DNA of 64,000 nucleotides from Eudoraea algarum (GTDB lineage Bacteria > Bacteroidota > Bacteroidia > Flavobacteriales > Flavobacteriaceae). Below the pieces are notes generated by a model. It was not told the origin of the DNA and ran no database searches. It saw nothing but the letters and a program-made list of their open reading frames with translations. A program made the translations under genes and the position numbers. The stretch lies in the NCBI RefSeq assembly GCF_050589645.1, contig NZ_JBNGOQ010000003.1, forward strand, positions 392,277-456,276. The letters run 5' to 3'. Position 1 is the first letter of the stretch, and the number at the start of each line of letters is the position of its first letter. Below are positions 3,127 through 53,552 of the stretch, piece by piece.

Positions 3127-3981
3127 ATGAACAAACTACAGAACACACTTTTGGCTAATGCCATATTCTCAGGAATGTCAGGAATAGGGCTTCTTTTATT
3201 TCACAAAGAGATAGCGGATATTTTTTCCGTTAATTCTAGTACTACTTTTTGGATAGTAGGAATTGCACTCATCTATTTTGCTTCGACCATTACTTACGAA
3301 ATCTTTAAACAAAGACCTATACCTATTTTATTTATAATTATTCAAGACATATTATGGGTAATAGGCAGTATAATTTTACTTGTATCACAACCATTCGGCA
3401 TCTCCATTACAGGAAACTATATAATAGCTGCAATTGCATTAATCGTCTTTTTTATGGCTATTGCTCAATCTAAAGCTTTGTCCAAAGTTGACACTATAGA
3501 TGCAGACGGAAAAAAGCGATTACGCTTTAAAACAATATTCAATGCCAATGGAACAAAAGTATGGAAAGTAATATCTGATGTAGGAAATGTTTATAAAGTA
3601 GCACCAAATATTGATGATTCATCTATCGTTTCCGGTAATGGAGAGGGGATGATTAGAAGTTGTTCACATGGAAAGGATAGTTGGACAGAGACCTGCTCTT
3701 TGTGGAAAGAAGAAGAGGCCATATCGTTTGTGGTTCATACAGATAAACCAGACTATCCGTACCCATTATCTTTTCTACAAGGAGCTTGGTACATAAAGGA
3801 AATAGATAGCAACAATACTGAAGTAGAGATGATTTTTGATTTAAAATTTAAGAATAAACTACAAAATCTGTTTGTCTACCCTCTAATGAAATTCAAGTTT
3901 GGCAAATCATTCAATGTACTACTAGATAATTGGAAAGCTATTATTGAAGAACATAGCAATGGGAGCTGGTTTTTCGCATAA
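3127..3981 (+). CDS. Membrane-anchored SRPBCC (START/polyketide cyclase-like) domain protein
   Basis: About four N-terminal TM helices, then an SRPBCC-like C-terminal domain (WKVISDVGNVYKVAPNI...); a canonical Bacteroidetes -7 box TATTTTTG lies about 27 nt upstream. Confidence 0.45.
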   Translation: MNKLQNTLLANAIFSGMSGIGLLLFHKEIADIFSVNSSTTFWIVGIALIYFASTITYEIFKQRPIPILFIIIQDILWVIGSIILLVSQPFGISITGNYIIAAIALIVFFMAIAQSKALSKVDTIDADGKKRLRFKTIFNANGTKVWKVISDVGNVYKVAPNIDDSSIVSGNGEGMIRSCSHGKDSWTETCSLWKEEEAISFVVHTDKPDYPYPLSFLQGAWYIKEIDSNNTEVEMIFDLKFKNKLQNLFVYPLMKFKFGKSFNVLLDNWKAIIEEHSNGSWFFA

Positions 3982-4503
3982 TAAAGTGTACAAAAAATCA
4001 TCCAAAAACACGAAACAAATACTTTTTAACCAGCTCCTTAAGGAAAATGAAGGAATTTTATCTAAGGTGGTCAATCAATTTATTGCGAGTGAATATGATA
4101 GAAAAGATTTTAAACAGGAGATAATTTATCAATTATGGAAATCTTATGATTCATTTAGTGGTAGGTCCAAATTCAGCACTTGGATGTATAGGGTATCTTT
4201 AAATACTGCGCTTAAATATCTTAAGAAAAAGAAAAAGATAATTTCAAGTATAGGGATTGATGAGAACTTACTTCAAAAAATTGATGTAAAGCATACGAGA
4301 TTGAGGAACAAACAAAACTGATGTACGAGGCGCTATACAAATTAGATAAAATAGAAAAGGAGATGCTACTCTTATATTTAAAAGGATTAAAGCAGAAAGA
4401 AATTGCTCAAATAATGGGTTTTACGACCACCAATGTTGGAACCAAAATTGGGCGAATAAAATTAAAATTGAAAAAAATGGTTGCAAGGCAAGAATCAAAT
4501 TAA
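3944..4503 (+). pseudogene. ECF-type RNA polymerase sigma-70 factor, paralog of 10848..11339, split into a region-2 ORF (3944..4321) and a region-4 ORF (4321..4503) by a 1-nt deletion in an A run at about 4288-4290.
   Basis: Alignment to the intact paralog: restoring gtaaaagca gives ...IDVKAYEIEEQTKLMYEALYKL, colinear with ...TDVSDNTEEQQIEKLYETIKRL; the FSGRSKFSTWMYRV motif is conserved. Confidence 0.5.
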
Positions 4504-4621: not shown

Positions 4622-5920
4622 ATGAAAGAATTTAAAAACATAAATACTATCCAAAAAATAAGCATAGTATTTATTGCTATAGGTGCAATGAGCATTTTTC
4701 CTGAGCACGGTACTTGGTTTCATAAAACATTGCAAACCCTATTTGTAGTAGGACTATTATTTTATATATATCCCATAAAAAGGAAAATGTTTAACTCTAA
4801 AATAAAAAAAACAACACTCATATTAATTTTCAGCATAGGTAGTATGGGGCTCAATGCACAAGATTATTCGGAACAAATTGAATCTTTTAACCTGAGTTTT
4901 GATGAAAAAGATTTGGGTAAGGTAAACAAACATTTAAGTAGCGAATTGAAGTTCGACCCTATTCCTGCTTCTAAGACTCCTATGATTATGAAAAATATAG
5001 TCACTAAGTTACCTAAACTAAATAGTATAAAAATAATTGAAAGTGAGAAAGGAAAGGCTAAAGTAAAGTATGATTTTGTAGGCTTAGGAATTAGGGAATC
5101 TCGTATTCACTTTGACGAAGAAGATAAGATTACAAAAATTGAACTAATAGAAAATCCTATCAGACAAGAGATGGAAGCTCAAAAAGCGATGAAGAAAAGC
5201 ATGCAGCAACCAAATACCAATGGCTTATCCAGTAAGTTTGAGAAAATTCAGTTTAAATCTATAGATAACCTAATGGTAACTGGGAATTTATATGAAATTT
5301 CTAAGGAAAATCCAATAATCTTGCTATGCCATCAAGCCGGTTACAATAAGTTTGAATACGCAGATATAGCGCCCCGTTTAAATCAATTAGGCTTCAATGT
5401 TTTAGCAATCGACCAACGTGCAGGAGGTGAATTTGCTGGGCATAAAAATGAAACTAACACACTAGCTAAGCAAAAAGGGTACACCAATCTTGATTTTTTA
5501 GATGCTGAACAAGATATAATTACGGCTATAGACTACCTTACTAATAGATACAGTAAAAAAATTGTATTATGGGGAAGTTCTTATTCTTCGAGTTTAGCTT
5601 TTATTATCGGAATGGAGAATGAAAATGTTATGGCTAGTATAGCCTTCAGTCCTGGCAACTATTTTGGCGACAAAAGACCTTTATTAGAAAATGTTCTTTC
5701 GAAGTCTAAGAAACCTTTTTTTATTACCTCTTCCAAGAATGAGGCACAAGAAATTAAACGTCTTCTTTTAAAAGATGTTCCTAAAGGAAAGGAAAGGATA
5801 CATTTCACGCCTAATTCCGAGGGATTTCATGGTTCTAGAGTTTTATGGGTTGGACAAACAGGAGCGGAAGAATATTGGTCTCAAATAAGGTCTTTTCTAG
5901 ATAATTATCGTAAGATATAA
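4622..5920 (+). CDS. Alpha/beta hydrolase (dienelactone hydrolase-like), secreted. The likely true start is 4787 (MFNSKIKKTTLILIFSIGSMGLNAQ signal peptide).
   Basis: C-terminal hydrolase fold (LLCHQAGYNKFEYADIAPRLNQLGFNVLAIDQRAGGE...WGSSYSS); in-frame ATG at 4787 precedes a signal peptide. Confidence 0.5.
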   Translation: MKEFKNINTIQKISIVFIAIGAMSIFPEHGTWFHKTLQTLFVVGLLFYIYPIKRKMFNSKIKKTTLILIFSIGSMGLNAQDYSEQIESFNLSFDEKDLGKVNKHLSSELKFDPIPASKTPMIMKNIVTKLPKLNSIKIIESEKGKAKVKYDFVGLGIRESRIHFDEEDKITKIELIENPIRQEMEAQKAMKKSMQQPNTNGLSSKFEKIQFKSIDNLMVTGNLYEISKENPIILLCHQAGYNKFEYADIAPRLNQLGFNVLAIDQRAGGEFAGHKNETNTLAKQKGYTNLDFLDAEQDIITAIDYLTNRYSKKIVLWGSSYSSSLAFIIGMENENVMASIAFSPGNYFGDKRPLLENVLSKSKKPFFITSSKNEAQEIKRLLLKDVPKGKERIHFTPNSEGFHGSRVLWVGQTGAEEYWSQIRSFLDNYRKI

Positions 5921-10847: not shown

Positions 10848-11339
10848 TTATTTATTTTGCATCAATTTTTTTAATTTCTCTTTTATCCTACTAATTCTAG
10901 TTCCTACGTTGGTTGTAGTGAAACCAATTATTTCGCCAATTTCATCGTAACTTTTGTTCTCCAGATAGAGCATAATAATCCCTCTCTCTAAATTGTTTAA
11001 CCTTTTAATGGTTTCATACAGCTTTTCTATTTGTTGTTCCTCAGTGTTATCACTAACATCAGTTCGCTGGAATAGTTTCTCATCGATTTCAATTCCACTG
11101 GTAATTGTTCTTTTTTTCTTTTTGATATAAACCATAGCAGTATTCAATGCTACGCGATACATCCAAGTGCTGAATTTGGACCTACCACTAAATGAACCAA
11201 AAGACCGCCATAACTGGTATATCATCTCCTGTCTTAAATCCTGCGCATCTACCTGAGAATTTGTGTACAAGGTTGATACCTTGAAAAGGATACCATCATT
11301 ATCATTTATGAATTGAACAAATTGTTCTTGGTTAGGCAT
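10848..11339 (-). CDS. RNA polymerase sigma-70 factor, ECF subfamily
   Basis: Sigma-70 region 2 (FSGRSKFSTWMYRVALNTA) and region 4 (YDEIGEIIGFTTTNVGTRISRIKEKL). Confidence 0.75.
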   Translation of the reverse strand: MPNQEQFVQFINDNDGILFKVSTLYTNSQVDAQDLRQEMIYQLWRSFGSFSGRSKFSTWMYRVALNTAMVYIKKKKRTITSGIEIDEKLFQRTDVSDNTEEQQIEKLYETIKRLNNLERGIIMLYLENKSYDEIGEIIGFTTTNVGTRISRIKEKLKKLMQNK

Positions 11340-14329: not shown

Positions 14330-16084
14330 CTAGTTCTGCTTTATAATGTACTCTTTGAGTAATTTATATCTTGCCCTTGATACGGGTATTTGGATTGGGA
14401 TGTCTGGACTTTTAAAATAGGATGTTTTGGAATTACCATAAAGCACTAAATGGTTATTAAGGTTTATAATAAATGATTTGTGGCACCGTTGTATATAATC
14501 GAAACCCCTTAACTGAGACTGAATACTTTTAAGAGTTGCCCTTAAAGTCCTTTTCTCTATTGTACCCATGTTTTTCCAATATAGAGTTGAATAATTGTCA
14601 TTTCCTTCTGCGTACAGAATCTTTTGCGGGTCTATTTCAAATGTCTCTGAGGTTTGCGTATTAATGGTGATTATTTGCGATGGCTTCTCCCTTTGATTTG
14701 TCTTATAAGTTGAATTATCTAGGTTAATTAAATGTAACAAGCTTGTATATTTAAATGTGTTTCTTATTGTATCAAAAATCGGATTACATAAAAACTCACC
14801 AGGAAGTAGACCTAGATTAAACCTAATGCTTCTTTCAATGTGTTTGAAAAACTCTTTTTCTTGATTAAACCCTAACCTGATAATCCCAATGGCATAATTG
14901 AAAAGTCCAGTATTTTGTTGTAAATCTAAATCTCGAACTTCATTTTCTAGTTGCATTGCTTCAGCATAGAAGCCAGATTTTGCAAAAGCAAAAGCCAAGT
15001 ATGCATAATAAATAGGATTATTTTTTTCGGTCTCCTTACAATATTTGAAATCTTCAATTGAACTTTCGATATGCCCCAGAAAGAGATTTGTCAATCCACG
15101 TAATTCAATAATAGGATGAGCATTCTTGTCAATTTTTAAAGCATCAGTGATGTACTTTTTAGCATTGACATAGTCCTTCATATAAATAAGGATTCGAATC
15201 ATCATTGCATAATGAGGTATTGCTAACCCTTCTTCTCTAATGGTTATTTCAGCATGATGCTTTGCTTTGTTGAACTGTTTTTTATGAATATGGTTCATTG
15301 CAGAAGCATGATGTGCCTTAATGTTTTCGCTATTCAATTTTAGTGCTTGTGTCAAGTTAATTTCTGCCTGATGAAAATTCCTATCAAAAAAAATATCGAT
15401 AAAAGCAGCAGAGACGTAAGATTCGGACCTTTTATTATTTAAAACCAAAGAACGATTGGAAAATTTTCTACCAGTTTCAAAAGCCAAAATAGGATTGTCA
15501 TATCCCATGATACCAATAATACTATAACAGTCAGCTATTGCTGAATGTGATACTGCCAGGGACTTGTTTTCTTTTATAGACTTTTTGAAAAAAGAAATAG
15601 CCAAAAGCATTTCTGGATACGTATACCGATGCCAATGATACAATCCTCTTAAATAATATTCTCTAGCTTTTGTCTTATCACTTGTGTCTTTAAATGAAAA
15701 GTTAGATTCACCACCATCTATAATATTCAAGACATTCTTTACAATCAATTTAACCGATATAGTCCATTTTTCTATTTGAACCAAAGTGTCAAAAGCCAAC
15801 AGTTCCTCTTTGGTATCTATCTTAAACAACCGAGTAAAAATTATGTACTCACCATTGATTTGTTTTAGGTTACCTTCTATAAGATAGTCTACTTGATGCT
15901 CGGTTTTTAATTTTTCTAAGGGGATGGGATTAGCTTTGACATATAAACTAGTAGTCCTTGAAGCCGTTTTTATTTGGGAAGATTTTGAAATAAGGTAAAT
16001 AGATTCTTCCAAAATACCCTCTGATAGATGGTGTAAATCATCAAGTTTATCAATATGGTATGGAAGTATAAGTACTTTTTTCAA
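14330..16084 (-). CDS. LytTR-family DNA-binding regulator with an N-terminal small domain and central TPR repeats
   Basis: C-terminal LytTR motif (YIQRCHKSFIINLNNHLV); TPR-like helical repeats in the middle. Confidence 0.6.
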   Translation of the reverse strand: MKKVLILPYHIDKLDDLHHLSEGILEESIYLISKSSQIKTASRTTSLYVKANPIPLEKLKTEHQVDYLIEGNLKQINGEYIIFTRLFKIDTKEELLAFDTLVQIEKWTISVKLIVKNVLNIIDGGESNFSFKDTSDKTKAREYYLRGLYHWHRYTYPEMLLAISFFKKSIKENKSLAVSHSAIADCYSIIGIMGYDNPILAFETGRKFSNRSLVLNNKRSESYVSAAFIDIFFDRNFHQAEINLTQALKLNSENIKAHHASAMNHIHKKQFNKAKHHAEITIREEGLAIPHYAMMIRILIYMKDYVNAKKYITDALKIDKNAHPIIELRGLTNLFLGHIESSIEDFKYCKETEKNNPIYYAYLAFAFAKSGFYAEAMQLENEVRDLDLQQNTGLFNYAIGIIRLGFNQEKEFFKHIERSIRFNLGLLPGEFLCNPIFDTIRNTFKYTSLLHLINLDNSTYKTNQREKPSQIITINTQTSETFEIDPQKILYAEGNDNYSTLYWKNMGTIEKRTLRATLKSIQSQLRGFDYIQRCHKSFIINLNNHLVLYGNSKTSYFKSPDIPIQIPVSRARYKLLKEYIIKQN

Positions 16085-29356: not shown

Positions 29357-29430
29357 TGACCTCGACAGGATTCAAACCTGTAACCTTCTGAGCCGTAATC
29401 AGATGCGCTATTCAGTTGCGCCACGAGGCC
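29357..29430 (-). tRNA. tRNA-Arg (anticodon ACG)
   Basis: 74-nt cloverleaf folded by hand: acceptor GGCCTCG/CGAGGTC, D-stem GCGC/GCGC, anticodon stem TCTGA/TCAGA with loop TTACGGC, T-stem ACAGG/CCTGT with T-loop TTTGAAT; CCA not encoded. Confidence 0.85.
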
Positions 29431-44448: not shown

Positions 44449-44451
44449 TGT

Positions 44452-44718
44452 CTACACCAAACTTTCCAGGACTTTCTTGATTTTTTGTGCCTTTTGTTCA
44501 AAGAATTCACCCAACTGGGTATCCGTATATTTAATGCTTGATGCCTTCTCCATAAAACTTTGATATTGGTATTCCAAAAGGGTTATGGCGTGTGCCCCGG
44601 AAGTTATCGGTGTAACGGTTCCTACTCTACAATACTGCTTTTCCATAGTCAAAAACTTTGTTCTTACAAATATACGACCGTATCGGGGTTTTAGATGTTG
44701 GTGTAAGGGTGTATTCAC
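44452..44718 (-). CDS. Hypothetical small protein
   Basis: ORF only. Confidence 0.2.
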   Translation of the reverse strand: MNTPLHQHLKPRYGRIFVRTKFLTMEKQYCRVGTVTPITSGAHAITLLEYQYQSFMEKASSIKYTDTQLGEFFEQKAQKIKKVLESLV

Positions 44719-45486: not shown

Positions 45487-45505
45487 CCCAACGATTATGG
45501 ATCAG

Positions 45506-45711
45506 TGAATGTAAATTGCAGCTCCGAATGACTTTGATAGCTAATTCAAATAATTACTCTAAAAAATGAGACAGAAGTTTTTTTAGAACATGTTCCGGAG
45601 CTGCTTTACATTTATTAGGTTACTTATCTCAAAGTAACATACTCTTTGCATACGTTGGGGAAAGGCTTATCAAGATTTACCGTTCCGATAAAAGTTTACG
45701 TTACGTTTACC
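45506..45711. repeat. Copy A of a ~210-bp repeat family (internal IR GTAAATTGCAGCTCC...GGAGCTGCTTTACATTT; conserved CAAAGTAACA and TTCCGATAAAAGTTTACGTT blocks), abutting the left edge of the GC-rich SusCD block
   Basis: About 75-80% identity to copy C over about 200 bp, same orientation. Confidence 0.65.
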
Positions 45712-45790
45712 AAAAACCTTCCGTTTGTCGAGAATTTTGGAGGTTAAGCGCCGTTACTCCGCTATACATGGACTTTTCAAGCGATGCAAA

Positions 45791-46480
45791 TCACGACGCT
45801 TTGAAATAGAAATCGAGCAGTTTTACCAGGTCCTCCCTTTTGTAGGGGTCCAGTTTCTGTTTTTTGATGTGCTTTTCCATTTCCCCGGCCCGTTCCCCGA
45901 ACAGGGGCACCAGGTTCTTCCGCTTGCGGGGCAGTTCCACCACCTCGCCCTCGGGGCCCAGCCCCTGGAGGTAGAAACGGGCGCCCTCGCGCTTGAACTT
46001 GGCGGGCACGTCCTGTTCGTAGCTGCTCTTGGCGGGCTTCTTGGGCACGAACTTGATGTTCTCCTTGAAATAGAGCGTGTAGCCCTCGCCGCGGTGCAGC
46101 CTTTCGAAGAAGGTGGTCTGCAGTTTTCCGCGCTCGTCCCTGTAGGGCCTGGTCTCGAACCAGCGGCCGGAGCCGTCCAACAGGGCTATGCGGTAGGGGG
46201 TGGAGCGGTCCAGTCCCATGACCTCGCCGTTCTCCCTCTTGATCTCGATGCTGTTCTCCACCACGTTGAAGCGCAGCAGCTGTACCTTTTCCATGCCGTT
46301 TATGCGGGCCGACACGAACTCCTCCAGGAGGTAGCGCGAGCCCTCGGCCTCGTCGTAGATCGGGTTGTTGGTGCCCACGAAGAAGGCGAGCTCGTTGAAG
46401 GTCTCGTTGTTGGGCCGCTGTATCTGCCCCTGGGCCGAAAGGCCTGCAAGGCACAGGGCAAGGAGGATCGTTCTTTTCAT
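45791..46480 (-). CDS. Secreted hypothetical protein (K/E-rich), last gene of the GC-rich SusC-SusD operon
   Basis: Signal peptide MKRTILLALCLAGLSAQ; the longer overlapping ORFs on both strands are high-GC artefacts. Confidence 0.45.
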   Translation of the reverse strand: MKRTILLALCLAGLSAQGQIQRPNNETFNELAFFVGTNNPIYDEAEGSRYLLEEFVSARINGMEKVQLLRFNVVENSIEIKRENGEVMGLDRSTPYRIALLDGSGRWFETRPYRDERGKLQTTFFERLHRGEGYTLYFKENIKFVPKKPAKSSYEQDVPAKFKREGARFYLQGLGPEGEVVELPRKRKNLVPLFGERAGEMEKHIKKQKLDPYKREDLVKLLDFYFKAS

Positions 46481-46565
46481 ATCTAGATCGGTTTAGGGTT
46501 AAAATATAGGGACCACCAAAAACCGTGCCTTGGTGGTCCCATTCCTATATCAGTTCCGCTAGCTC

Positions 46566-47996
46566 CTAGAAGGTTCCGGGATTCTGCGTGATGTTCGGAT
46601 TGTTGGTGGTCTCATCGTCCACGATGGGGAAGATCACCTTGTCCGCACCGGGTGCCGACTCGGGACCGCCACCTGGGCGAAGGTTCAGGCCGTTCCTCAA
46701 GAGGTCCATCCTACGGTGGCCCTCGAAACAGAGTTCCTTCCTTCTTTCCAGACTGATGGCGTCAAGGTCCAGATTGCCCGCGGTAAGGTCGGCAAGGCCG
46801 GCCCTGCTACGCAGCGTGTTGATGTCGGCCAGGGGCGTGGCGCCCACAGAGGTGCCTGCCCTAAAATTGGCCTCGGCCCTGTTCAGGTACATCTCCGTGA
46901 CCCTTACCCCCATACCATCGGAGGCATTGTCCACCACATCGTTGTACTTGGTGGTGAAGAAGGTATTGTTGCCCCCTGCATCGGTGGCCGCTACGGACAG
47001 TTCGTCGAACCTTCTGTCCCCGGGCTCTGCATTAAAGGCATCGATCAGGTCCTGGCTAAAGGGCGCATCGCCCCGTCCTCCGGGGGAGGCGTTGTAAAAG
47101 TTCACGTACACCTCGTCGGAACCCGGTACCGATTCGTCCTGGGGACCGTCGGTCGGGGTATTGATCACCACGAACAGGTGCTCCGAGGAGGTTTCCGCGT
47201 TGTTATAGAAATCGTAGTTGGCCGCCAAGGGGTGGTTGCCCGCCGCGATCACCTGGTTGGCCAGATCGGCCGCCCCGGCCCAGTTCTCCCTGTAGAGGTA
47301 CAACCTGGACAAAAGACCCTGGGCAGAAGCCTGCTCGGCCCGCTCGCCGTTGTCCACCGGAAGGTCCGCTATGGCGTCCAAAAGGTCCTGCTCTATAAAA
47401 GCGTGCACCTCGTTCACCGTGGAACGCTCCAATTGGAACTCGGATATCTCGCCCCCTTCGAAGGGCTGCGAAACGATCGGTACCCCAAGGTTGGTGCCCC
47501 CGCTGAACTGGTAGGGCTGTGCAAAGAGGTTCACCAATTGGAAATAAGTGTACGCACGTAGGAACTTGGCCTCGGCTACGAATACGGCTTTTGTGGCCTC
47601 ATCCAGCCCGTTGATCTCCGCCGGATCTACGGGCGGAAGGTTCACGATTACATTGTTGGCGGCCCCGATCAGTTCATAGGCATCCAACCAGATGTTGTCT
47701 ATCGTCGTATTGGTGGCCAGGGTCTCGAACTGGTCCACTTCCTGGAGTGAAGGGAAACTTCCCACGAAATTCACGTTGTCCGACATGAAGTCCGACATCA
47801 GCTGCGGATTCCCGTTCAGGTCACCGCTCTGGTTCTTACTGTAGACCCCGACGACGGCACCGTTGATCGTGGCAAAGGTGCTGAAGATTGTACTGGAGGC
47901 CACATTGTTCTCCGCAACCACGTCCAATCGGTCCTCGCACGAAACGATCATGAGAAGTCCAAAGAGTGCTGCTATTGCTTTATTTGTTTTTTTCAT
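46566..47996 (-). CDS. susD: RagB/SusD family nutrient-uptake outer-membrane lipoprotein
   Basis: Lipobox MIVSCED; SusD-like length and TPR-like N-terminal region; directly downstream of susC. Confidence 0.8.
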   Translation of the reverse strand: MKKTNKAIAALFGLLMIVSCEDRLDVVAENNVASSTIFSTFATINGAVVGVYSKNQSGDLNGNPQLMSDFMSDNVNFVGSFPSLQEVDQFETLATNTTIDNIWLDAYELIGAANNVIVNLPPVDPAEINGLDEATKAVFVAEAKFLRAYTYFQLVNLFAQPYQFSGGTNLGVPIVSQPFEGGEISEFQLERSTVNEVHAFIEQDLLDAIADLPVDNGERAEQASAQGLLSRLYLYRENWAGAADLANQVIAAGNHPLAANYDFYNNAETSSEHLFVVINTPTDGPQDESVPGSDEVYVNFYNASPGGRGDAPFSQDLIDAFNAEPGDRRFDELSVAATDAGGNNTFFTTKYNDVVDNASDGMGVRVTEMYLNRAEANFRAGTSVGATPLADINTLRSRAGLADLTAGNLDLDAISLERRKELCFEGHRRMDLLRNGLNLRPGGGPESAPGADKVIFPIVDDETTNNPNITQNPGTF

Positions 47997-48010
47997 TGCT
48001 CTATTTTTTA

Positions 48011-51000
48011 TTAAAATGTTAAACGTGCCCCGAACGAATAGGACTTGGCCTGTGGTGCGGTAAAGAATGTTTCTCCTTGGAACAAGGGATCGATATCATC
48101 GGTCACCTCGGGGTCTATCCCGTCCAGTTCGTCCCCTTTAATGGTGAATAGGTTGGTTGCCGTGGCATAGAGCCTAAGCCCGGTAATGAAACCGCCAAGT
48201 CTTTCCAGGGCCTTCTCGGGAAGGTTGTACCCCAGGGTGATGTTCTTGATCCTCAGATAGGAGCCGTCCAACTGCTGCTGGGTAGAACGCTGGTTGAACA
48301 AGTTAAAGGTAGAACTGTTTGGGCTTGGCAAAAAGGCGTTGTCGCCCGGCTGCCTCCAGATGTTCAGGTTCTGCCTCCTGATGTTCACTATGCCCCCGAT
48401 GGCGTCGTTACCGTCGGCAAAACGAAGGCCGTCAATTACTATTTCATTACCATAGGAGTAGTTCATCAGTACGGACAGGTCAAAGTCCTTGTACTTGAAG
48501 GTATTGGTCATACCCCCTGAGAAATCGGGAAGCGGGCTTCCCGTGACCACACGGTCTCCCGAGCCTGGATTAGTGGTAATGTTTCCATTGGCATCCAACC
48601 ATTCGGCGTCCCCGGTCTGGGAGTTGATGCCCACGTAACGGATCAGGTAGAAGTTGTTCAGGGATTCCCCTTCGATGGCCCTTTGAATGGCCCCGTCGAT
48701 GATCCTCCTGCCCTGTGGGTCCGTCGCGGCGTCCTCGTTGAGACGGAGCACCTTATTCTCTATCGTGGTCAGGTTGAAGTTGGTACGCCACTCGAAGTTC
48801 TCGGAGCGTACGTTAACCGTGCTCAGTTCAAACTCCCAACCTTTGTTCTCCATCTCGCCGATGTTCCTGCTGATCGAGGTAAAACCGGTCTGTGGTGGCA
48901 ATATCTGGTTCAGCAAAAGGTCGCTGGTGGTCTTCTTGAAGTACGAGGCGTTGAAATTGATGCGCCCGTTCAAAAAGGTCGATTTGATACCGATGTCCAG
49001 CGTCTCACTTTCCTCCCATTTGATGTCCGCATTTTCAGGTTGGTTGGGTACGGCCCCGGATTCCCCGTTGTAGTCCCCGAAACCTCCGATACTGAAGAGC
49101 CCGAGCGATGGGAAGGTCCCCAAGCGGTCGTTACCCACCGTACCGATACTGGCCCGGACGGAGAGATAGTCAATAAAGTCGATGTCCTGGACAAAGGGTT
49201 CCTCGGAGATTACCCAGCCCGCGGCCGCGGACCAGAAGTACCCGAAACGCACATCTGGCTGGAAACGGGAGGACCCGTCACGTCTTATGGATCCCTCCAC
49301 AAGGTACTTGCCCTTGTAGTCATAGGATACCCTGGAAAAGAGCCCGAAAAGGCGGGTCGGGAAACGGTCCCCGTTCAATACGGTGGCCGTAGCCCCTGCG
49401 CCGAGGTTCCTAAGGACATCGTCCAAAAATCCGGTCGCGGAAACGTTCAATCTGGACCTGAGGGTCTCCTCATAGTTCAGTCCGAGAAGAACCGATAGGT
49501 TGTGGTCCTCACCATAGGTGTCGGAGTAGTTTATCGTCTGGTTGGTAAGATATCTTTCCTCCCTTACGCTCACTACCTGTGCCGATCCACCGGGCGTGTT
49601 GAAGTCCGCATTTCTAAGTGTTTCTTCAAGGTCGAGCCTGTCGATACCGAACTCGGAACGCCAGGTAAGCCCCTCGATAGGGGTGATCTCGGTATAGGCG
49701 TTCCCGATTACACGAAAGGTCTTCAGCTCGTCCGTGTTCAGGGCCACCCTCGCAAAGATGTTCGGGATAAAGGAGCCCGACTGCGCGAAGTTGCCCTCGT
49801 CGTCAAAGGCCGCTACCACCGGGCTCTGAAGGAAGGCTGTTGTGAAGGGTGCGTTGATACTGTTCTCCACACTTACCCTGTTGAGGCGGTTGTTGGTGAC
49901 CCCCAGGTTCATCCCGACCTTCAGCCATTCCTGGACGTCCGAATCGATGTTGATCCGCGCCCCGGCCCGTTGCTGGTCGTTGCCGATGATAAAGCCTTGG
50001 GTGTCCTGGTAGTCCATACCAAAGAAGAAGCTGGTCTTCTCGCCACCGCCCCTTACGCCAAGGTTGTAGTTTTGTGATACGCCCGTGCGCTGTACCCCGC
50101 CGAGCCAGTCCGTCCCCCCGGAACCGATGGCGCCAAGGCCAAGGGATTCTGGTGTTACCGTGGTGCCGCCGTTCTGTATGGTGGCCACTTCCGACTTGAA
50201 CTGTCGGAACTCGTCCGCGGTCAGGATGTCCGGAACGTCGGTAGACTGCGAGTACTGTGTGCTCACGTCAAAGGTCACCTGGGCGGCGGAGTTCCTGCGG
50301 CCCTTCTTGGTGGTGATCAGGATTACCCCGTTGGCGCCCCTGGACCCGTAGATCGAGGTCGCACCGGCATCCTTAAGTACGGTGAGCGACTGGATGTCGT
50401 TCGGGTTCACGTAGGAGAGCGGGTTGATCCCGGTGTTCCCCCCACGGTTGAGCGTGTTGCCCGCGGTATCGGTGATGGGCACCCCATCGATCACGATAAG
50501 GGGCTGGCTACCCGCGTTGATCGAGTTTACGCCCCGTACACGTATAACGGCGGCAGAACCGAGAACACCCGAGGCGTTCACGATCTGGGTACCGGCGCTC
50601 TGCCCCTGTAGGAGCTGATCGGCCGAGACCACCTGGAGGTTCTCAATGGCCTCCTCTTTTACGATACCGATGTTCTGGATAATCTTTTTCTCCTCTTGGT
50701 TACCGTAACCAATAACGACCACCTCTTCCAAGGCCTCCGCATCTTCCTGCATCGTTACATTGATGACATCCGAAGCGCCTACAGTGCGCTCAACGGTTGT
50801 TTGTCCTAAATAGGAATAAACAAGAACATCCCCTGAGCTTGCCTGGATAGCATAGTTGCCATCAAAATCAGTTTGTGTTCCCGTGGAAGTTCCTTTTACC
50901 ACAATGTTCACCCCAGGTAAGGGTAAGCCTCCTTCATCCGTAACGGTACCGGAAACTGTTTTTTCTTGTGCATATGCCATAGACATCCCAAATAGGAATA

Positions 51001-51031
51001 GCATACACAGCCAAATACATTTTTTTTTCAT
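48011..51031 (-). CDS. susC: SusC/RagA family TonB-dependent outer-membrane receptor
   Basis: N-terminal carboxypeptidase-regulatory-like domain, plug (TonB box region), NYNLGVRGGGEKTSFFFGMDYQDTQGFI SusC signature, C-terminal ...ARLTF. Confidence 0.85.
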   Translation of the reverse strand: MKKKCIWLCMLFLFGMSMAYAQEKTVSGTVTDEGGLPLPGVNIVVKGTSTGTQTDFDGNYAIQASSGDVLVYSYLGQTTVERTVGASDVINVTMQEDAEALEEVVVIGYGNQEEKKIIQNIGIVKEEAIENLQVVSADQLLQGQSAGTQIVNASGVLGSAAVIRVRGVNSINAGSQPLIVIDGVPITDTAGNTLNRGGNTGINPLSYVNPNDIQSLTVLKDAGATSIYGSRGANGVILITTKKGRRNSAAQVTFDVSTQYSQSTDVPDILTADEFRQFKSEVATIQNGGTTVTPESLGLGAIGSGGTDWLGGVQRTGVSQNYNLGVRGGGEKTSFFFGMDYQDTQGFIIGNDQQRAGARINIDSDVQEWLKVGMNLGVTNNRLNRVSVENSINAPFTTAFLQSPVVAAFDDEGNFAQSGSFIPNIFARVALNTDELKTFRVIGNAYTEITPIEGLTWRSEFGIDRLDLEETLRNADFNTPGGSAQVVSVREERYLTNQTINYSDTYGEDHNLSVLLGLNYEETLRSRLNVSATGFLDDVLRNLGAGATATVLNGDRFPTRLFGLFSRVSYDYKGKYLVEGSIRRDGSSRFQPDVRFGYFWSAAAGWVISEEPFVQDIDFIDYLSVRASIGTVGNDRLGTFPSLGLFSIGGFGDYNGESGAVPNQPENADIKWEESETLDIGIKSTFLNGRINFNASYFKKTTSDLLLNQILPPQTGFTSISRNIGEMENKGWEFELSTVNVRSENFEWRTNFNLTTIENKVLRLNEDAATDPQGRRIIDGAIQRAIEGESLNNFYLIRYVGINSQTGDAEWLDANGNITTNPGSGDRVVTGSPLPDFSGGMTNTFKYKDFDLSVLMNYSYGNEIVIDGLRFADGNDAIGGIVNIRRQNLNIWRQPGDNAFLPSPNSSTFNLFNQRSTQQQLDGSYLRIKNITLGYNLPEKALERLGGFITGLRLYATATNLFTIKGDELDGIDPEVTDDIDPLFQGETFFTAPQAKSYSFGARLTF

Positions 51032-51066
51032 ACTTTAAGTTTTAATTAAGTTAGTCTCGTACGTCT

Positions 51067-51300
51067 TGAATTAAACTGTAAGCGTAGGCCCATAGGACTT
51101 AAAGCCAGGGAAACCTACCGTTCCCAAAAAAGTGAGAATTAAGAGTGCTGTTTCTAAATTTTGGAAGTAAGTGTCTCAGAGCTACTTTACATTTAATTAG
51201 TCATACGGCCCAAAGTAACATGCTCTTTGCCTGTTTTAAGGAAAGTCTTATAAACGTTTACTTTTCCGATGAAAGTTTACGCTTTTTTTACGCCTACCGT
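51067..51300. repeat. Copy B (degenerate) of the ~210-bp repeat family, in the susC upstream region
   Basis: Shares the ..GAGCTACTTTACATTTAATTAG..CAAAGTAACATGCTCTTTGC..TTCCGATGAAAGTTTACGC.. blocks with copies A and C. Confidence 0.55.
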
Positions 51301-51616
51301 CCATTTACTGAGAATAATTCAATGATGAGTGCAGTTAGGTCAATTTGGGTATTCGCTTCTTCCGCCTTATTCATTCATCTAAAAAAGGATATCCTCCAAA
51401 GCCATAATCCCAATTTGGTTCCAGATATTTTCAAAACGGCAAGGCGCTGAAGTAAATCCTACGGCATAAGATATTTGCGGACATCCTATTTATAGGCCGG
51501 GCACGGGGGTCGGGCACCTAATAAAAAACGAAGAGCCAAGGTCTACCGCAAACAATATCGGTTTTTTGGATAATACTAATGGTAAAGGGAAAATTGCCTG
51601 TATTGGCGGGTATTTC

Positions 51617-51824
51617 TGAATGTAAATTGCAGCCCTGAATTATATTGATGACTAATTCAATTAATTACTCTAAAAATGAGAATGAAGTATTTTTTAGGAG
51701 TAAGTTTTTCAGGGCTGCTTTACATTTAGTTAGTTATAAAACCAAAGTAATACGCTCTGGATAATATTTGGGAAGAACTTATAAACCTTTACTTTTTCCG
51801 ATAAAAGTTTACGTTGAGCTTACG
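51617..51824. repeat. Copy C of the ~210-bp repeat family; its 3' end overlaps the stop region of the AraC-type gene
   Basis: TGAATGTAAATTGCAGCCC...GGGCTGCTTTACATTTAG...TTCCGATAAAAGTTTACGTT. Confidence 0.65.
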
Positions 51825-53353
51825 CTGGTCTTTAGGCTATTTCGTAGCGTTTTTTTTTGATACTCGGTGGGTGTAAGGTCGGTATCTTTTTTAAAGGCCT
51901 TGTTGAAGGTAACTTTGTTGTTATAGCCCACTTCATAAGCGATATCAATGATATTCAGATTTTTGAGATAGTCAGTATCCAGAATTTGTTTGGCTTCATG
52001 GATCCGGTAACTATTGATCAATTCATGAAAGTTCATTTTAAAATGCTCGTTGATCACTTGGGAGGTATTGTGTCTGGTGGTATTTAACCTTTCGGCCAGG
52101 ATTTCCAGACTTATGTCGTTCTCCTTGTAAACCTTGTGCTCATCGAACAACTTCACTAAGTTCGACTTGAGTTCCTCGGACAGGCTTTCTGTTAGACCCG
52201 AATTTTTGTACTTAAAGAAAAGCTGGTCGTTAAGGGCATACAGGCCATTGAATACATTGGGCTGCACGTTTGCCGAATAGCCCACATACAATACCATTAG
52301 AGTCATACTGATAATTTGTAGATTGAGCAGGATGCCCGAGTTGATGTTGTAGTTTACAAAAAAGAAATAAAAGGCGTAGGTAAAGATGTACATAAAATGT
52401 ATCCTATAGATATTTTTTTGCCAGAGTTTGTTGTTCTTGCTCAACTCCTTGGTCTTGCTGCTTTCCAGATATAGCTTTCGGATAAAATAACCATACCCGA
52501 TCAGTGATATTAGTTTTGTGGACGAGATGATGAGCAAGTTGTAATTCCCATAGGCCTCTTCAACAGCTACATTGCCCAATATGACGTCTAGTTTATCAGG
52601 CGCGGACAAGGCATATACCGGAAGGAGATAGGTCAAAAGCAGTACGGTGGGGACAAGGTGGAGCAAGTCCTTGGGCTTAAATTGGTACTGCCGTGTTATT
52701 CGTTTATAATAGAAATACAACAAGGGCCCGAACAATAGGGCAAACGGTGAAGACATAAGATGGGTATGCGGAAACTGAAACTGATAATTGGTCGCAAAAA
52801 AGAACCAATGGAGGATAAAAATGGAATGGACCAAAATAAACCCACTGATCAACACCCGGGCCAATTTGTCGATGTTCTTGTTTAGATTAAGGACTATGGT
52901 AATGTAAAAGCCAATTAGGGCTATATATAATAGGATAAAGGACCAGACATTGATATTGGTCGTATATTTTTCCTCCAAAGTGGCGAATTCGTCCGTATGT
53001 TTTATGGAATCAAAACCCTCGTTTAGGAAAAGTGCAGTGTTGAACTCCTCAAAAAGATACTTTTCCAAAAAAACTACTGATTTCTCGGTGTTTTCGAGTC
53101 CGGCATACCCCAAGGCAATTTTTTTGTACAGCTGGGATTTTTCAATCTTCCCTTCCTCCAACAACTGAAGGTATATCTTAAGTGCTTCGGAATAATTTTG
53201 TTTTTGGTACAATTCATCGGCCCTGGTCAGCAGGTCTTGGGTAATATCATAAAAGTGCGGCAAACGACTCTCAGCGACGCTTGGGTACGACAGCGCGCTG
53301 GTTGGGAAGCTTAACAGTAAGAACAATCCGAAAACAATTCTTAAGCGTCTCAT
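51809..53353 (-). CDS. Membrane-bound AraC-type sensor regulator (signal peptide, periplasmic TPR-like region, about 7 TM helices, C-terminal AraC HTH). The ORF extends to 53530, but the likely start is 53353.
   Basis: MRRLRIVFGLFLLLSFPTSALS signal peptide; C-terminal HTH (ILAERLNTTRHNTSQVINEHF...). The terminator hairpin at 53553-53580 lies inside the longer ORF. Confidence 0.6.
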   Translation of the reverse strand: MRRLRIVFGLFLLLSFPTSALSYPSVAESRLPHFYDITQDLLTRADELYQKQNYSEALKIYLQLLEEGKIEKSQLYKKIALGYAGLENTEKSVVFLEKYLFEEFNTALFLNEGFDSIKHTDEFATLEEKYTTNINVWSFILLYIALIGFYITIVLNLNKNIDKLARVLISGFILVHSIFILHWFFFATNYQFQFPHTHLMSSPFALLFGPLLYFYYKRITRQYQFKPKDLLHLVPTVLLLTYLLPVYALSAPDKLDVILGNVAVEEAYGNYNLLIISSTKLISLIGYGYFIRKLYLESSKTKELSKNNKLWQKNIYRIHFMYIFTYAFYFFFVNYNINSGILLNLQIISMTLMVLYVGYSANVQPNVFNGLYALNDQLFFKYKNSGLTESLSEELKSNLVKLFDEHKVYKENDISLEILAERLNTTRHNTSQVINEHFKMNFHELINSYRIHEAKQILDTDYLKNLNIIDIAYEVGYNNKVTFNKAFKKDTDLTPTEYQKKTLRNSLKTSVSST

Positions 53354-53552
53354 GGTTGATTGATGAATTAGCAAGTAAAAGTTAGGAATTAAAAAAAGTC
53401 CAAATCTTAAAGTTTTCATAAAAACAGTAAACCCCGATAATAGTTTACTTGATGAGAAAGTCCCGCTATGCTTGGTAAAATGGCGTTTTGGGGACCGAGA
53501 CGGAGAGAAATGGCAGAAAGCTTTCTCCAAATCTTAAGACGTTATAACAAAA

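Follow-up and report, generated by a model that had tools for sequence, protein, structure and literature searches.

Three copies of a ~230-bp direct repeat (A, B, and C) accompany a SusCD nutrient-uptake cassette in a 64,000-nucleotide (nt) stretch of the Eudoraea algarum genome (contig NZ_JBNGOQ010000003.1), which as a whole is called the window here. We consider it likely that this repeat is a composite cis-regulatory module of the adjacent membrane-bound regulator with an HTH_18 (AraC-type) domain, encoded on the minus strand. Throughout, the module is read on the minus strand, that is, in the direction of susC. It combines a DNA half, made of a box array and a putative promoter, with a half that reads as a structured RNA. 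The minus-strand order is the HTH_18 regulator gene, C, a spacer, B, susC, susD, a third cassette gene (hyp229), and A; these are followed by the convergent gene hyp169 on the plus strand.

The direct-repeat families found in a repeat search of the window connect positions 45506-45710, 51156-51291, and 51617-51738. An earlier description made from the letters alone (the sequence-only reading) had claimed three copies in the same orientation with ~75-80% identity, and this was borne out: the mean column identity of A, B, and C in a MAFFT alignment is 75%, and blastn yields 76.4% over 212 nt for A and C, 75.7% over 103 nt for A and B, and 76.6% over 124 nt for B and C. The similarity is highly significant in a profile search with nhmmer, with E-values around 1e-61 (5e-61 for B, 8e-62 for C, and 7e-63 for A). 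Neither this profile nor the RNA covariance model R1, described below, finds a fourth copy in the 64-kb window. Among the conserved blocks proposed earlier, TTCCGATAAAAGTTTACG and GCTGCTTTACATTTA occur exactly three times each in the 64 kb, against 0.13 and 0.21 expected occurrences, and no shuffled sequence reached three. The proposed internal inverted repeat is also real. Its arms lie ~75 nt apart with two more conserved hairpins between them, and two double changes that compensate fully separate A from C (CTCCG/CGGAG in A, CCCTG/CAGGG in C). The placement relative to genes was correct as well: A lies 3' of the cassette and begins ~80 nt past the stop of its last gene (45791), B ends 36 nt before the susC ATG (51031), and C extends over the stop of the HTH_18 gene (51809-51811). 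The spacer from C to B is 316 nt long.

We derived the anatomy of the module from 37 distinct copies aligned in the susC direction. The DNA half (~95 nt) has the consensus GTAAA-N6-GTAAAC-TTTYATCGG-AAAA-GTAAAC-GTTTATAAG-nCTTTCC-N~21-TTACTTTGR or, written by spacing, GTAAA-N6-GTAAAC-N13/14-GTAAAC-GTTTATAAG-CTTTCC-N21-TTACTTTG. The -7-like box at its end is followed by ~15 nt and then by the RNA-like part of ~115 nt, where conservation ends. The DNA half is nearly invariant among the 37 copies, the box array being the most conserved part; the GTAAA boxes start 11 and 19-20 nt apart. Within the window, the triple-box pattern is unique to the modules, with two exact matches against 0.00 expected. 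Compared with Saonia, the spacer between C and B has ~39% identity, that is, it cannot be aligned, whereas the modules have 67-80% and the coding sequence of hyp229 has 45-59%.

Module C, the distal copy (51607..51839, minus strand), is complete, with the box array, the -7-like box, and the full RNA. Its box array (51788..51823) comprises GTAAG at 51823-51819, GTAAA at 51812-51808, which holds the stop TAA of the regulator gene, and GTAAA at 51792-51788; then follow GTTTATAAG (51786-51778) and CTTCCC (51775-51770), in columns nearly invariant across the 37 copies, and the -7-like box TTACTTTG (51743..51750). In the susC-proximal module B (51057..51309, minus strand), the boxes are intact (51291-87, 51280-76, and 51261-57; GTTTATAAG at 51255-47; CTTTCC at 51245-40; -7-like box at 51218-51211), and the RNA half is degenerate. 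The terminal 'orphan' A (45498..45724, minus strand), between hyp229 and the convergent hyp169, is again a full module, with boxes at 45710-06, 45699-95, and 45680-76, CTTGATAAG at 45674-66, CTTTCC at 45664-59, and the -7-like box at 45637-45630.

Because of their position and conservation, we infer that the three GTAAA boxes are binding sites of the regulator, and that a flavobacterial promoter is formed by CTTTCC as its -33 and TTACTTTG as its -7 element. In Flavobacterium psychrophilum, the -7 box of sigma-A promoters is TAnnTTTG at positions -12 to -5, with the variant TAnnTTGY (PMC9723704). The TTAYTTTG of the modules holds the TAnnTTG core of such boxes, and CTTTCC stands 21 nt before TTACTTTG. 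Transcription is predicted to start near 45625 (A), 51206 (B), and 51738 (C), 6-7 nt ahead of the first position matched by R1. For B, this would give a 5' untranslated region of ~175 nt ahead of the susC ATG. Scans for promoters and terminators of the E. coli sigma-70 type are uninformative for Bacteroidota, and the sole 'terminator' that they reported overlaps the -7-like box.

The second half of the module would form an RNA of ~115 nt folded into a three-way junction, with a long closing stem composed of P1a and P1b and two hairpins, P2 and P3. P1a pairs AAUGUAAA with UUUACAUU, and P1b pairs GCAGCYCUGAA with UUCAGRGCUGC; P2 is an A/U hairpin (CUAAAAA/UUUUUAG), and P3 is an invariant hairpin, UUUGA-AUUAGYYA-UCAAA. 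In an alignment of 24 leaders, RNAalifold recovers a 10-bp stem (P1b) with double changes in six of ten pairs and only four broken cells out of 240. In a plain MAFFT alignment of 29 copies, 84.6% of the cells pair, compared with 35-49% after a shift of the partners by 1-3 columns; double changes are seen at 20 pairs, and none of 500 shuffles reaches any of the five measures used. A model-based alignment yields 95.6% paired cells and covariation at 8 of 11 pairs in P1b, and 86.8% paired cells with 23 double-change pairs overall; this alignment leans to the structure, and the MAFFT-based figure is the fairer one. Single-sequence folds have z-scores of -3.9 to -8.5, against -0.46 for copy B of the window.

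The covariance model R1 matches 31 copies on the sense strand with 48-115 bits. In the window, the RNA element of C (51616..51732, minus strand) scores 115.2 bits (z = -8.5) and that of A (45505..45618, minus strand), which ends 19 nt from the stop of hyp169, scores 112.8 bits (z = -5.8). The degenerate RNA half of B (51072..51199, minus strand) reaches 21.3 bits (E = 0.057) and folds no better than shuffled sequences, although its outer stem AATTAAATGTAA/TTACAGTTTAATT is still able to pair. Read in the susC sense, the copies contain 68 G.U pairs and 25 A.C mismatches, and this excess on the sense strand fits an RNA made in the susC direction. The compensatory double substitutions between A and C in P1b argue against a protein that reads the arms as a DNA palindrome. 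A peptide encoded within the RNA is disfavoured by insertions and deletions of 1, 2, 4, and 5 nt among the copies. The sequence-only reading had suggested an Rfam search and a folding of the repeat. The folds are structured (-30.5 kcal/mol for A, -33.2 kcal/mol for C), and no known family was matched: with Rfam 15, only a tRNA at 29357-29430 passes the gathering threshold in the window, and no family is found for the module region, where a plant microRNA model gives the best match at a permissive threshold (E = 1.3; 24 bits, with 46.5 needed).

To place the module in other genomes, we ran an exact scan with the 18-mer TTCCGATRAAAGTTTACG over one genome per bacterial species. It found 37 stretches, about the number expected by chance, with the exception of 11 Flavobacteriaceae genomes with one or two matches each (Saonia, Eudoraea, three Maribacter, Ulvibacterium, and five others). 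Ten of the 11 genomes could be placed. Each has one to three copies, always in one identical syntenic locus; in the eleventh (L018), the sequence ends at the locus edge. The gene order is PurU, DUF4197, the regulator, [modules], SusC, SusD, ..., [module], hyp169, ..., PyrF, PrfA. Nine more such loci came from a metagenome scan with a degenerate 34-mer. Orthologues of the regulator led to Pricia, Aggregatimonas, Pseudozobellia, and Croceitalea, and a SusD look-up to Robiginitalea. In all 21 loci that could be oriented, from ~15 genera, a module follows the regulator gene, usually 2-19 nt past its stop, and all modules face susC. The module family is locus-bound, not dispersed. The sequence-only reading had proposed counting the copies in relatives and their association with SusCD loci, and the count gives copies at a single SusCD locus in each of ten genomes. 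It had also held that repeats confined to one locus and devoid of conserved structure would speak against it; confinement to a single locus per genome is what we find, while the structure is conserved and backed by covariation.

The 21 loci share a plan of the membrane-bound HTH_18 regulator, one or two modules, susC-susD, and a terminal module. Wherever the sequence extends far enough, the cassette region ends in another module, except in L038, where it is absent, and in L050, where only its leader half is present (L numbers denote individual fetched loci). The terminal copy was found in the window and in L006, L022, L040, L042, L044, L048, L050, L052, and L055. In L038 and L020, the copy that follows hyp229 precedes a second susC. 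In the window and about half of the loci, the susC-proximal copy is of a 'gamma' subtype, with the DNA half kept and the RNA decayed, and a full copy stands upstream, behind the regulator; gamma copies precede susC in L005, L006, L007, L012, and L040, and related variants occur in L042-L048. The window copies are closer to their positional counterparts in Saonia (83.2% for A, 84.0% for B, 84.2% for C) than to their paralogues (76%). This means that the triplication is older than these genera and that the copies have been neither homogenised nor recently recombined with each other.

In seven loci (L020, L022, L034, L035, L038, L041, and L053), a full module ends 1-17 nt ahead of the susC ATG. 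There, transcription of susC must pass through the RNA, which makes it the 5' leader of the susCD mRNA. Taken with the susC direction, the usual position 2-19 nt after the regulator stop, the nearly invariant boxes, and the covarying fold, this supports one of the suggestions of the sequence-only reading, namely a regulatory RNA or a promoter module present in several copies and tied to nutrient-uptake loci. Copies A and C of the window have full RNAs and no gene directly behind them. In terminal copies, the stem varies by compensatory changes, with CUCCG/CGGAG in A of the window, GUCCUG/CAGGAC in L042 and L048, GCGGC/GUCGC in L040, and GCAAC/GUUGC in L052, which also has AAGG/CCUU in P1a (sequences L040_7367, L042_8812, L048_7641, and L052_17966). 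Copy A keeps its structure in this way and is therefore probably functional. On these comparative grounds, we regard both A and C as likely functional RNA genes or leaders rather than relics. In Robiginitalea myxolifaciens (L055 10470-10722), a canonical intrinsic terminator, AAATCCGCACCCCTGGGTGCGGATTTCTTTTTT, ends susD right before the terminal module, in which P1b is followed by UUGUUUUUUG; this terminal module would thus be a unit of its own. In the mechanism that we propose, the regulator would sense a periplasmic or membrane signal and fire all modules of the locus. The RNA would act as a negative or attenuating leader in cis, and the stand-alone copies may give the same RNA as a short transcript acting in trans on a shared factor or target.

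A second kind of neighbourhood was found through SusD. The closest homologue of the window SusD, in Flagellimonas, lies behind a 149-amino acid (aa) protein that consists of an HTH_18 domain only. The spacer there has an R1 match of 33.7 bits, in which P3 is kept (UAUUUGAAUUAGCUAUCAAAA), and the closing stem is unrelated in sequence yet complementary, GGCGG(U)GAGAGG/CUUCUCCCGCC. In Flagellimonas and Muricauda, the genes for short HTH_18 proteins (104-160 aa) are all located 370-450 nt ahead of susC-susD, and every further Flagellimonas or Muricauda locus fetched has a sense-strand R1 match of 21-33 bits in this spacer. In place of GTAAA boxes, the Flagellimonas spacers contain two direct repeats similar to GTCCCNCCCGTTT, ~31 nt apart (L054 ~5700-5760; L059 ~5590-5640), which are possibly the operator of the short HTH_18 proteins. 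In a separate observation, the Flagellimonas halotolerans contig (L056 92-4839) has a Transposase_mut gene and a Phage_int_SAM_5 integrase gene just upstream of a unit that consists of a long HTH_18 gene (506 aa), a short one (160 aa), and susCD and lies at a contig end.

This arrangement recalls an abundant noncoding RNA (ncRNA) of Flagellimonas taeanensis, described in work on dCas12f-sigmaE systems, which occurs beside helix-turn-helix (hth) genes and also in the large spacer that precedes a susCD operon, with the same orientation as the operon (Hoffmann et al., Nature 2026; PMC13472631). A covariance model has been made for it, and it is present in several copies per genome and also in other Bacteroidota. 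Its role and promoter are given as unknown, with a guess at negative regulation; sites matching dCas12f guides overlap its 5' end, and the HTH protein is reported to bind inverted repeats near its own gene (Hoffmann et al., 2026; PMC13472631). On balance, we lean to the view that the RNA half of the module is this 'hth-associated ncRNA'. Motif strings of the module were not found in the text of the dCas12f papers. More tentatively, the module could be the native, dCas12f-independent form of a widespread Bacteroidota switch made of an HTH regulator and an ncRNA. In such a switch, a membrane HTH_18 sensor would fire a promoter of its own that first yields the three-way-junction RNA. This RNA would gate SusCD in cis as a leader and in trans from the stand-alone copies at the locus ends, and the modules and the conserved 5' end of susC would serve as fixed docking points for swaps of non-orthologous cassettes under a single regulator.

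Several points weigh against reading the repeat as a regulatory module that makes this RNA. All transcript starts and ends, and the binding of the regulator, are predicted; the -7-like box departs from TAnnTTTG at one position, and TTTC(C) stands at -33 in place of TTTG. The covariation counts, such as 20 double-change pairs in the MAFFT alignment, take in related sequences, so that the cells are not independent events. R1 was searched in the window and the fetched loci, and the locus restriction rests on the DNA scans. In the window, it is the copy beside susC whose RNA is degenerate (21 bits, z = -0.46), so that in this organism the RNA may not serve as a direct leader. The E. coli-type scan reported no terminator-like site between C and B, and neither A nor C has a U-tract after P1. 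Transcripts from C may thus run into susC, and no terminating signal accounts for the 3' ends of the proposed short RNAs. As for the hth-associated ncRNA, the comparison is one of genomic context, and no rpoE-dcas12f pair was found in the annotated parts of the window or in any fetched locus, including three context look-ups of hth-susCD loci.

The modules stay in place while the cassettes between them differ. Behind orthologous regulators and modules, there are at least four non-orthologous types of SusCD pairs, which differ among genera. Type 1, found in the window, L006, L012, L020, L022, L034, L038, and L041, has a SusC with 82-85% aa identity to that of the window (Saonia, Eudoraea, Maribacter, and others) and a SusD with 73-76%; an orthologue of hyp229 (46-53%) follows susD in L006, L020, and L038. 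In type 2 (L005, L040, and the second pairs of L038 and L051), the identity is 36-38% for SusC and 31-32% for SusD. Type 3 (L035, L042, L043, L045, L048, L050, L052, and the second pair of L020) has a SusC with 42-53% identity in the first ~250 aa and 25-27% in the rest, and its partner, where SusD is annotated (L050 and L052), is SusD-like_2. Type 4 (L007 and the first pair of L051) has 29-31% in SusC. L020 and L038 carry two cassettes with a module between them, and L051 has two SusCD pairs with no module detected between. The module subtypes (alpha, beta, and gamma) combine freely with the cassette types. These comparisons support a replacement of cassettes at a fixed regulatory scaffold. 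As a separate observation, the susC starts of non-orthologous cassette types are nearly alike, ATGAAAAAAAAATG(T/C)A (window 51031; L006, L022, L035, L038, and L042), and the conserved CAUUUUUU(AG) of the module RNA is complementary to the A-run at the start of susC.

In the window, the GC content of the cassette is 55-61%, against ~40%. The GC-rich tract (45790..50760) has a GC fraction at third codon positions (GC3) of 0.70-0.86. Its left edge falls between the hyp229 stop and copy A, and its right edge lies inside susC at about codon 85-100, with GC3 of 0.33-0.45 before and 0.6-0.88 after. The sequence-only reading had described a compositionally foreign cassette bracketed by the repeats. 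The composition and the left edge at A agree with this, whereas the right edge is not at B. The GC3 breaks fit a single replacement whose crossovers fell within the conserved 5' end of susC and close to the terminal module. The orthologous cassettes of relatives reach only 40-50% GC. A search for the donor of the GC-rich allele gave none: the best SusD match is 79% identical, and that of Robiginitalea, with ~50% GC, is only 75%. Recent horizontal transfer of the cassette among the sampled genera was rejected, as the identity to Saonia and Eudoraea is flat at ~65-80% across flanks and cassette. No integrase, transposase, rpoE-dcas12f pair, or other mobility gene was seen in the annotated parts of the window (1-~20.4 kb, selected open reading frames (ORFs) in 19.5-35.2 kb, and 36.6-58.0 kb). 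The suggestion of cassette gain or exchange by recombination between the repeats therefore stands in part: the differing SusCD types and the left GC edge speak for it, and the right edge in susC, the lack of a nearby recombinase, and the lack of recent recombination among A, B, and C speak against.

A stronger form of this suggestion takes the repeats to be primarily recombination substrates, direct repeats or attC-like hairpins that let SusCD cassettes be gained, lost, or swapped. It would account for the different SusCD types between the same modules, the tandem cassettes of L020 and L038, the free combination of module subtype and cassette type, the end of the GC-rich tract beside A, and a strand-biased hairpin that is conserved in structure and not in sequence; in F. 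halotolerans, genes for an integrase and a transposase are located 0.3-2.4 kb away from the unit. Still, we find it unlikely, since no recombinase is encoded within 10 kb in the window or the syntenic loci, attC core sites (RYYYAAC/GTTRRRY) are absent from the arm ends upon direct reading, and conservation is highest in the box array rather than in the hairpin. Moreover, single modules stand right before susC in L035 and L041 with nothing to exchange, the right edge of the GC-rich tract is in susC and not at a repeat, and paralogues at 76% identity against 83-84% for positional orthologues exclude recent exchange. An integron-like array was rejected for want of an integrase within ~10 kb and of core sites (arms TGTAAAGCAGC...GCTGCAATTTACA). 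The sequence-only reading had also considered a miniature inverted-repeat transposable element (MITE), which here would have inserted three times; the size (~210-230 bp), the internal inverted repeat, and the presence of several copies speak for it. The inverted repeat is internal and not terminal, no target-site duplications were seen, and the 64-kb window has no further copy, while all ten genomes show a single locus with fixed order and orientation and positional orthology across genera. We give this explanation almost no credence.

The two remaining alternatives concern what the copies do. Copies A and C could be non-functional relics, A of a lost second SusCD cassette and C of a duplication of the promoter region. 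Indeed, a second susC, missing from the window, directly follows the copy behind hyp229 in L038 and L020, and the terminal copy of Pricia has lost its DNA half. The terminal copy is nevertheless kept beside different neighbours in at least nine lineages, is more conserved than the adjacent coding gene, and preserves its stem by compensatory substitutions, and the distal copy is present in nearly every locus; decay thus seems quite improbable. Even less weight falls on a purely DNA role of the inverted repeat, as a palindromic operator or looping site for a dimeric regulator with no structured RNA. In most copies, the arms are kept in sequence as TGTAAAGCAGC/GCTGCAATTTACA, and the HTH protein of Hoffmann et al. 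is reported to bind inverted repeats near its own gene (PMC13472631); both points favour such a role. However, a single protein would need to read the differing complementary arms of both A and C in one genome, G.U pairs exceed A.C mismatches on one strand (68 against 25), the whole stem is swapped for an unrelated complementary sequence in Flagellimonas, and the arms are ~75 nt apart with two conserved hairpins in between.

The regulator gene (51809..53353, minus strand) encodes 514 aa as annotated in databases, with Pfam matches to HTH_18 (5e-17) and HTH_AraC (4e-8). The protein has a signal or transmembrane segment, a TPR-like region, at least five hydrophobic segments by hydropathy, and the C-terminal HTH_18 (AraC-type) domain, and it is 100% identical to a 'helix-turn-helix domain-containing protein' of Flavobacteriaceae bacterium 3-367. 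Its ORF is open for 573 codons from a TTG at 53530, and public annotations begin at the ATG at 53353. The type 1 susC (48011..51031, minus strand) encodes a TonB-dependent receptor of 1006 aa with the Pfam domains CarbopepD_reg_2, Plug, and TonB_dep_Rec_b-barrel, and susD (46566..47996, minus strand) encodes 476 aa with SusD-like_3 and SusD_RagB; the closest foreign homologue of this SusD, from Flagellimonas sp., is the one with 79% identity. The product of hyp229 (45791..46480, minus strand) has a signal peptide and no Pfam family. No credible small ORF was found in the spacer between C and B, which is unconserved and holds only ORFs of 20-28 codons. Beside pyrF, all related loci have a conserved ORF of 64-65 aa without a family (window, region of 44450-44650; L001 13351-13545; L050 18445-18642; L052 19424-19621; L055 11455-11649).

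Several features lie elsewhere in the window. Positions 1-24000 have a GC fraction of 0.29-0.34, compared with 0.40-0.49 in the rest, and encode hydrolases, two extracytoplasmic function (ECF) sigma factors, and small regulators. A 144-nt inverted repeat with 78% identity (4106-4249 and 11097-11240) falls within two oppositely oriented ECF sigma-factor genes. The copy near 3944-4503 consists of two ORFs (Sigma70_r2, 125 aa, and Sigma70_r4_2, 60 aa) and is thus probably frameshifted. A 584-aa protein encoded at 14330-16084 (minus strand) combines TPR repeats with a C-terminal LytTR domain, a layout that recalls the TPR and C-terminal DNA-binding domain of the HTH_18 regulator. Finally, a 63-nt direct repeat (79%; 1184-1246 and 1668-1730, spacing 484 nt) probably reflects internal or paralogous coding repeats.

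Bacteroidota take up nutrients mainly through SusCD transporters, whose control in marine Flavobacteriaceae is poorly known. The locus described here offers a compact, testable regulatory unit in which the three GTAAA boxes are a candidate operator and are joined by a candidate promoter and by a structured RNA that comparison strongly supports; it is conserved in ~15 genera and missing from Rfam. If the module RNA is indeed the hth-associated ncRNA, the locus bears on what drives that RNA, as a candidate regulator-dependent promoter is fused to it, and on its dependence on dCas12f, as no dCas12f-sigmaE genes are near. To this it adds orphan copies that appear to be kept under selection and different SusCD pairs plugged in behind one module.

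Among known systems, integron attC arrays resemble the locus in having directly repeated sites with imperfect hairpins around variable cassettes and a structure more conserved than the sequence. Unlike integrons, the locus has neither an integrase nor R''/R' core sites, the SusCD cassettes are operons of 5-7 kb with their own promoters, and the sites carry a promoter-like half. The small RNAs (sRNAs) associated with polysaccharide utilization loci in Bacteroides, both cis-antisense RNAs of the DonS type and the FopS family with RbpB (PMC11697453), are likewise paralogous RNAs at susC-type operons, with a presumed role in repressing or tuning them; neither a sequence similarity nor an Rfam family was found to link the module RNA to them, and the module clade is that of marine Flavobacteriaceae. 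A DonS-type antisense RNA was rejected, as DonS is antisense to the 5' region of susC, whereas the module RNA is located ahead of susC and its pairing agrees with the sense strand (68 G.U, 25 A.C). Riboswitch and attenuator leaders share with the module a conserved multi-stem RNA between promoter and start codon, and the published Flagellimonas data contain an abundant short RNA. They differ in that no ligand, terminator U-tract, or alternative fold was identified for the module, and in that it has stand-alone copies without a downstream gene.

The DNA half is similar to promoters of AraC/XylS-type activators (MarA/SoxS-like): an HTH_18 gene is next to the presumed target, and short direct-repeat boxes, spaced by roughly one and two turns of the helix, stand shortly before the -33 element. 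GTAAA is not a known consensus of such activators, the regulator is embedded in the membrane and has a TPR-like periplasmic part, and its binding is a prediction only. The hth-associated ncRNA shares the most specific context with the module, as the module RNA also lies beside an HTH gene (21 of 21 loci, and the genes for 104-160-aa HTH_18 proteins in Flagellimonas and Muricauda), upstream of susCD and on its strand. Unlike the published case, the regulator of the module is a 514-aa membrane protein and not a short HTH protein, and the RNA is fused to the GTAAA array and present in two or three copies per locus, including the terminal orphan.

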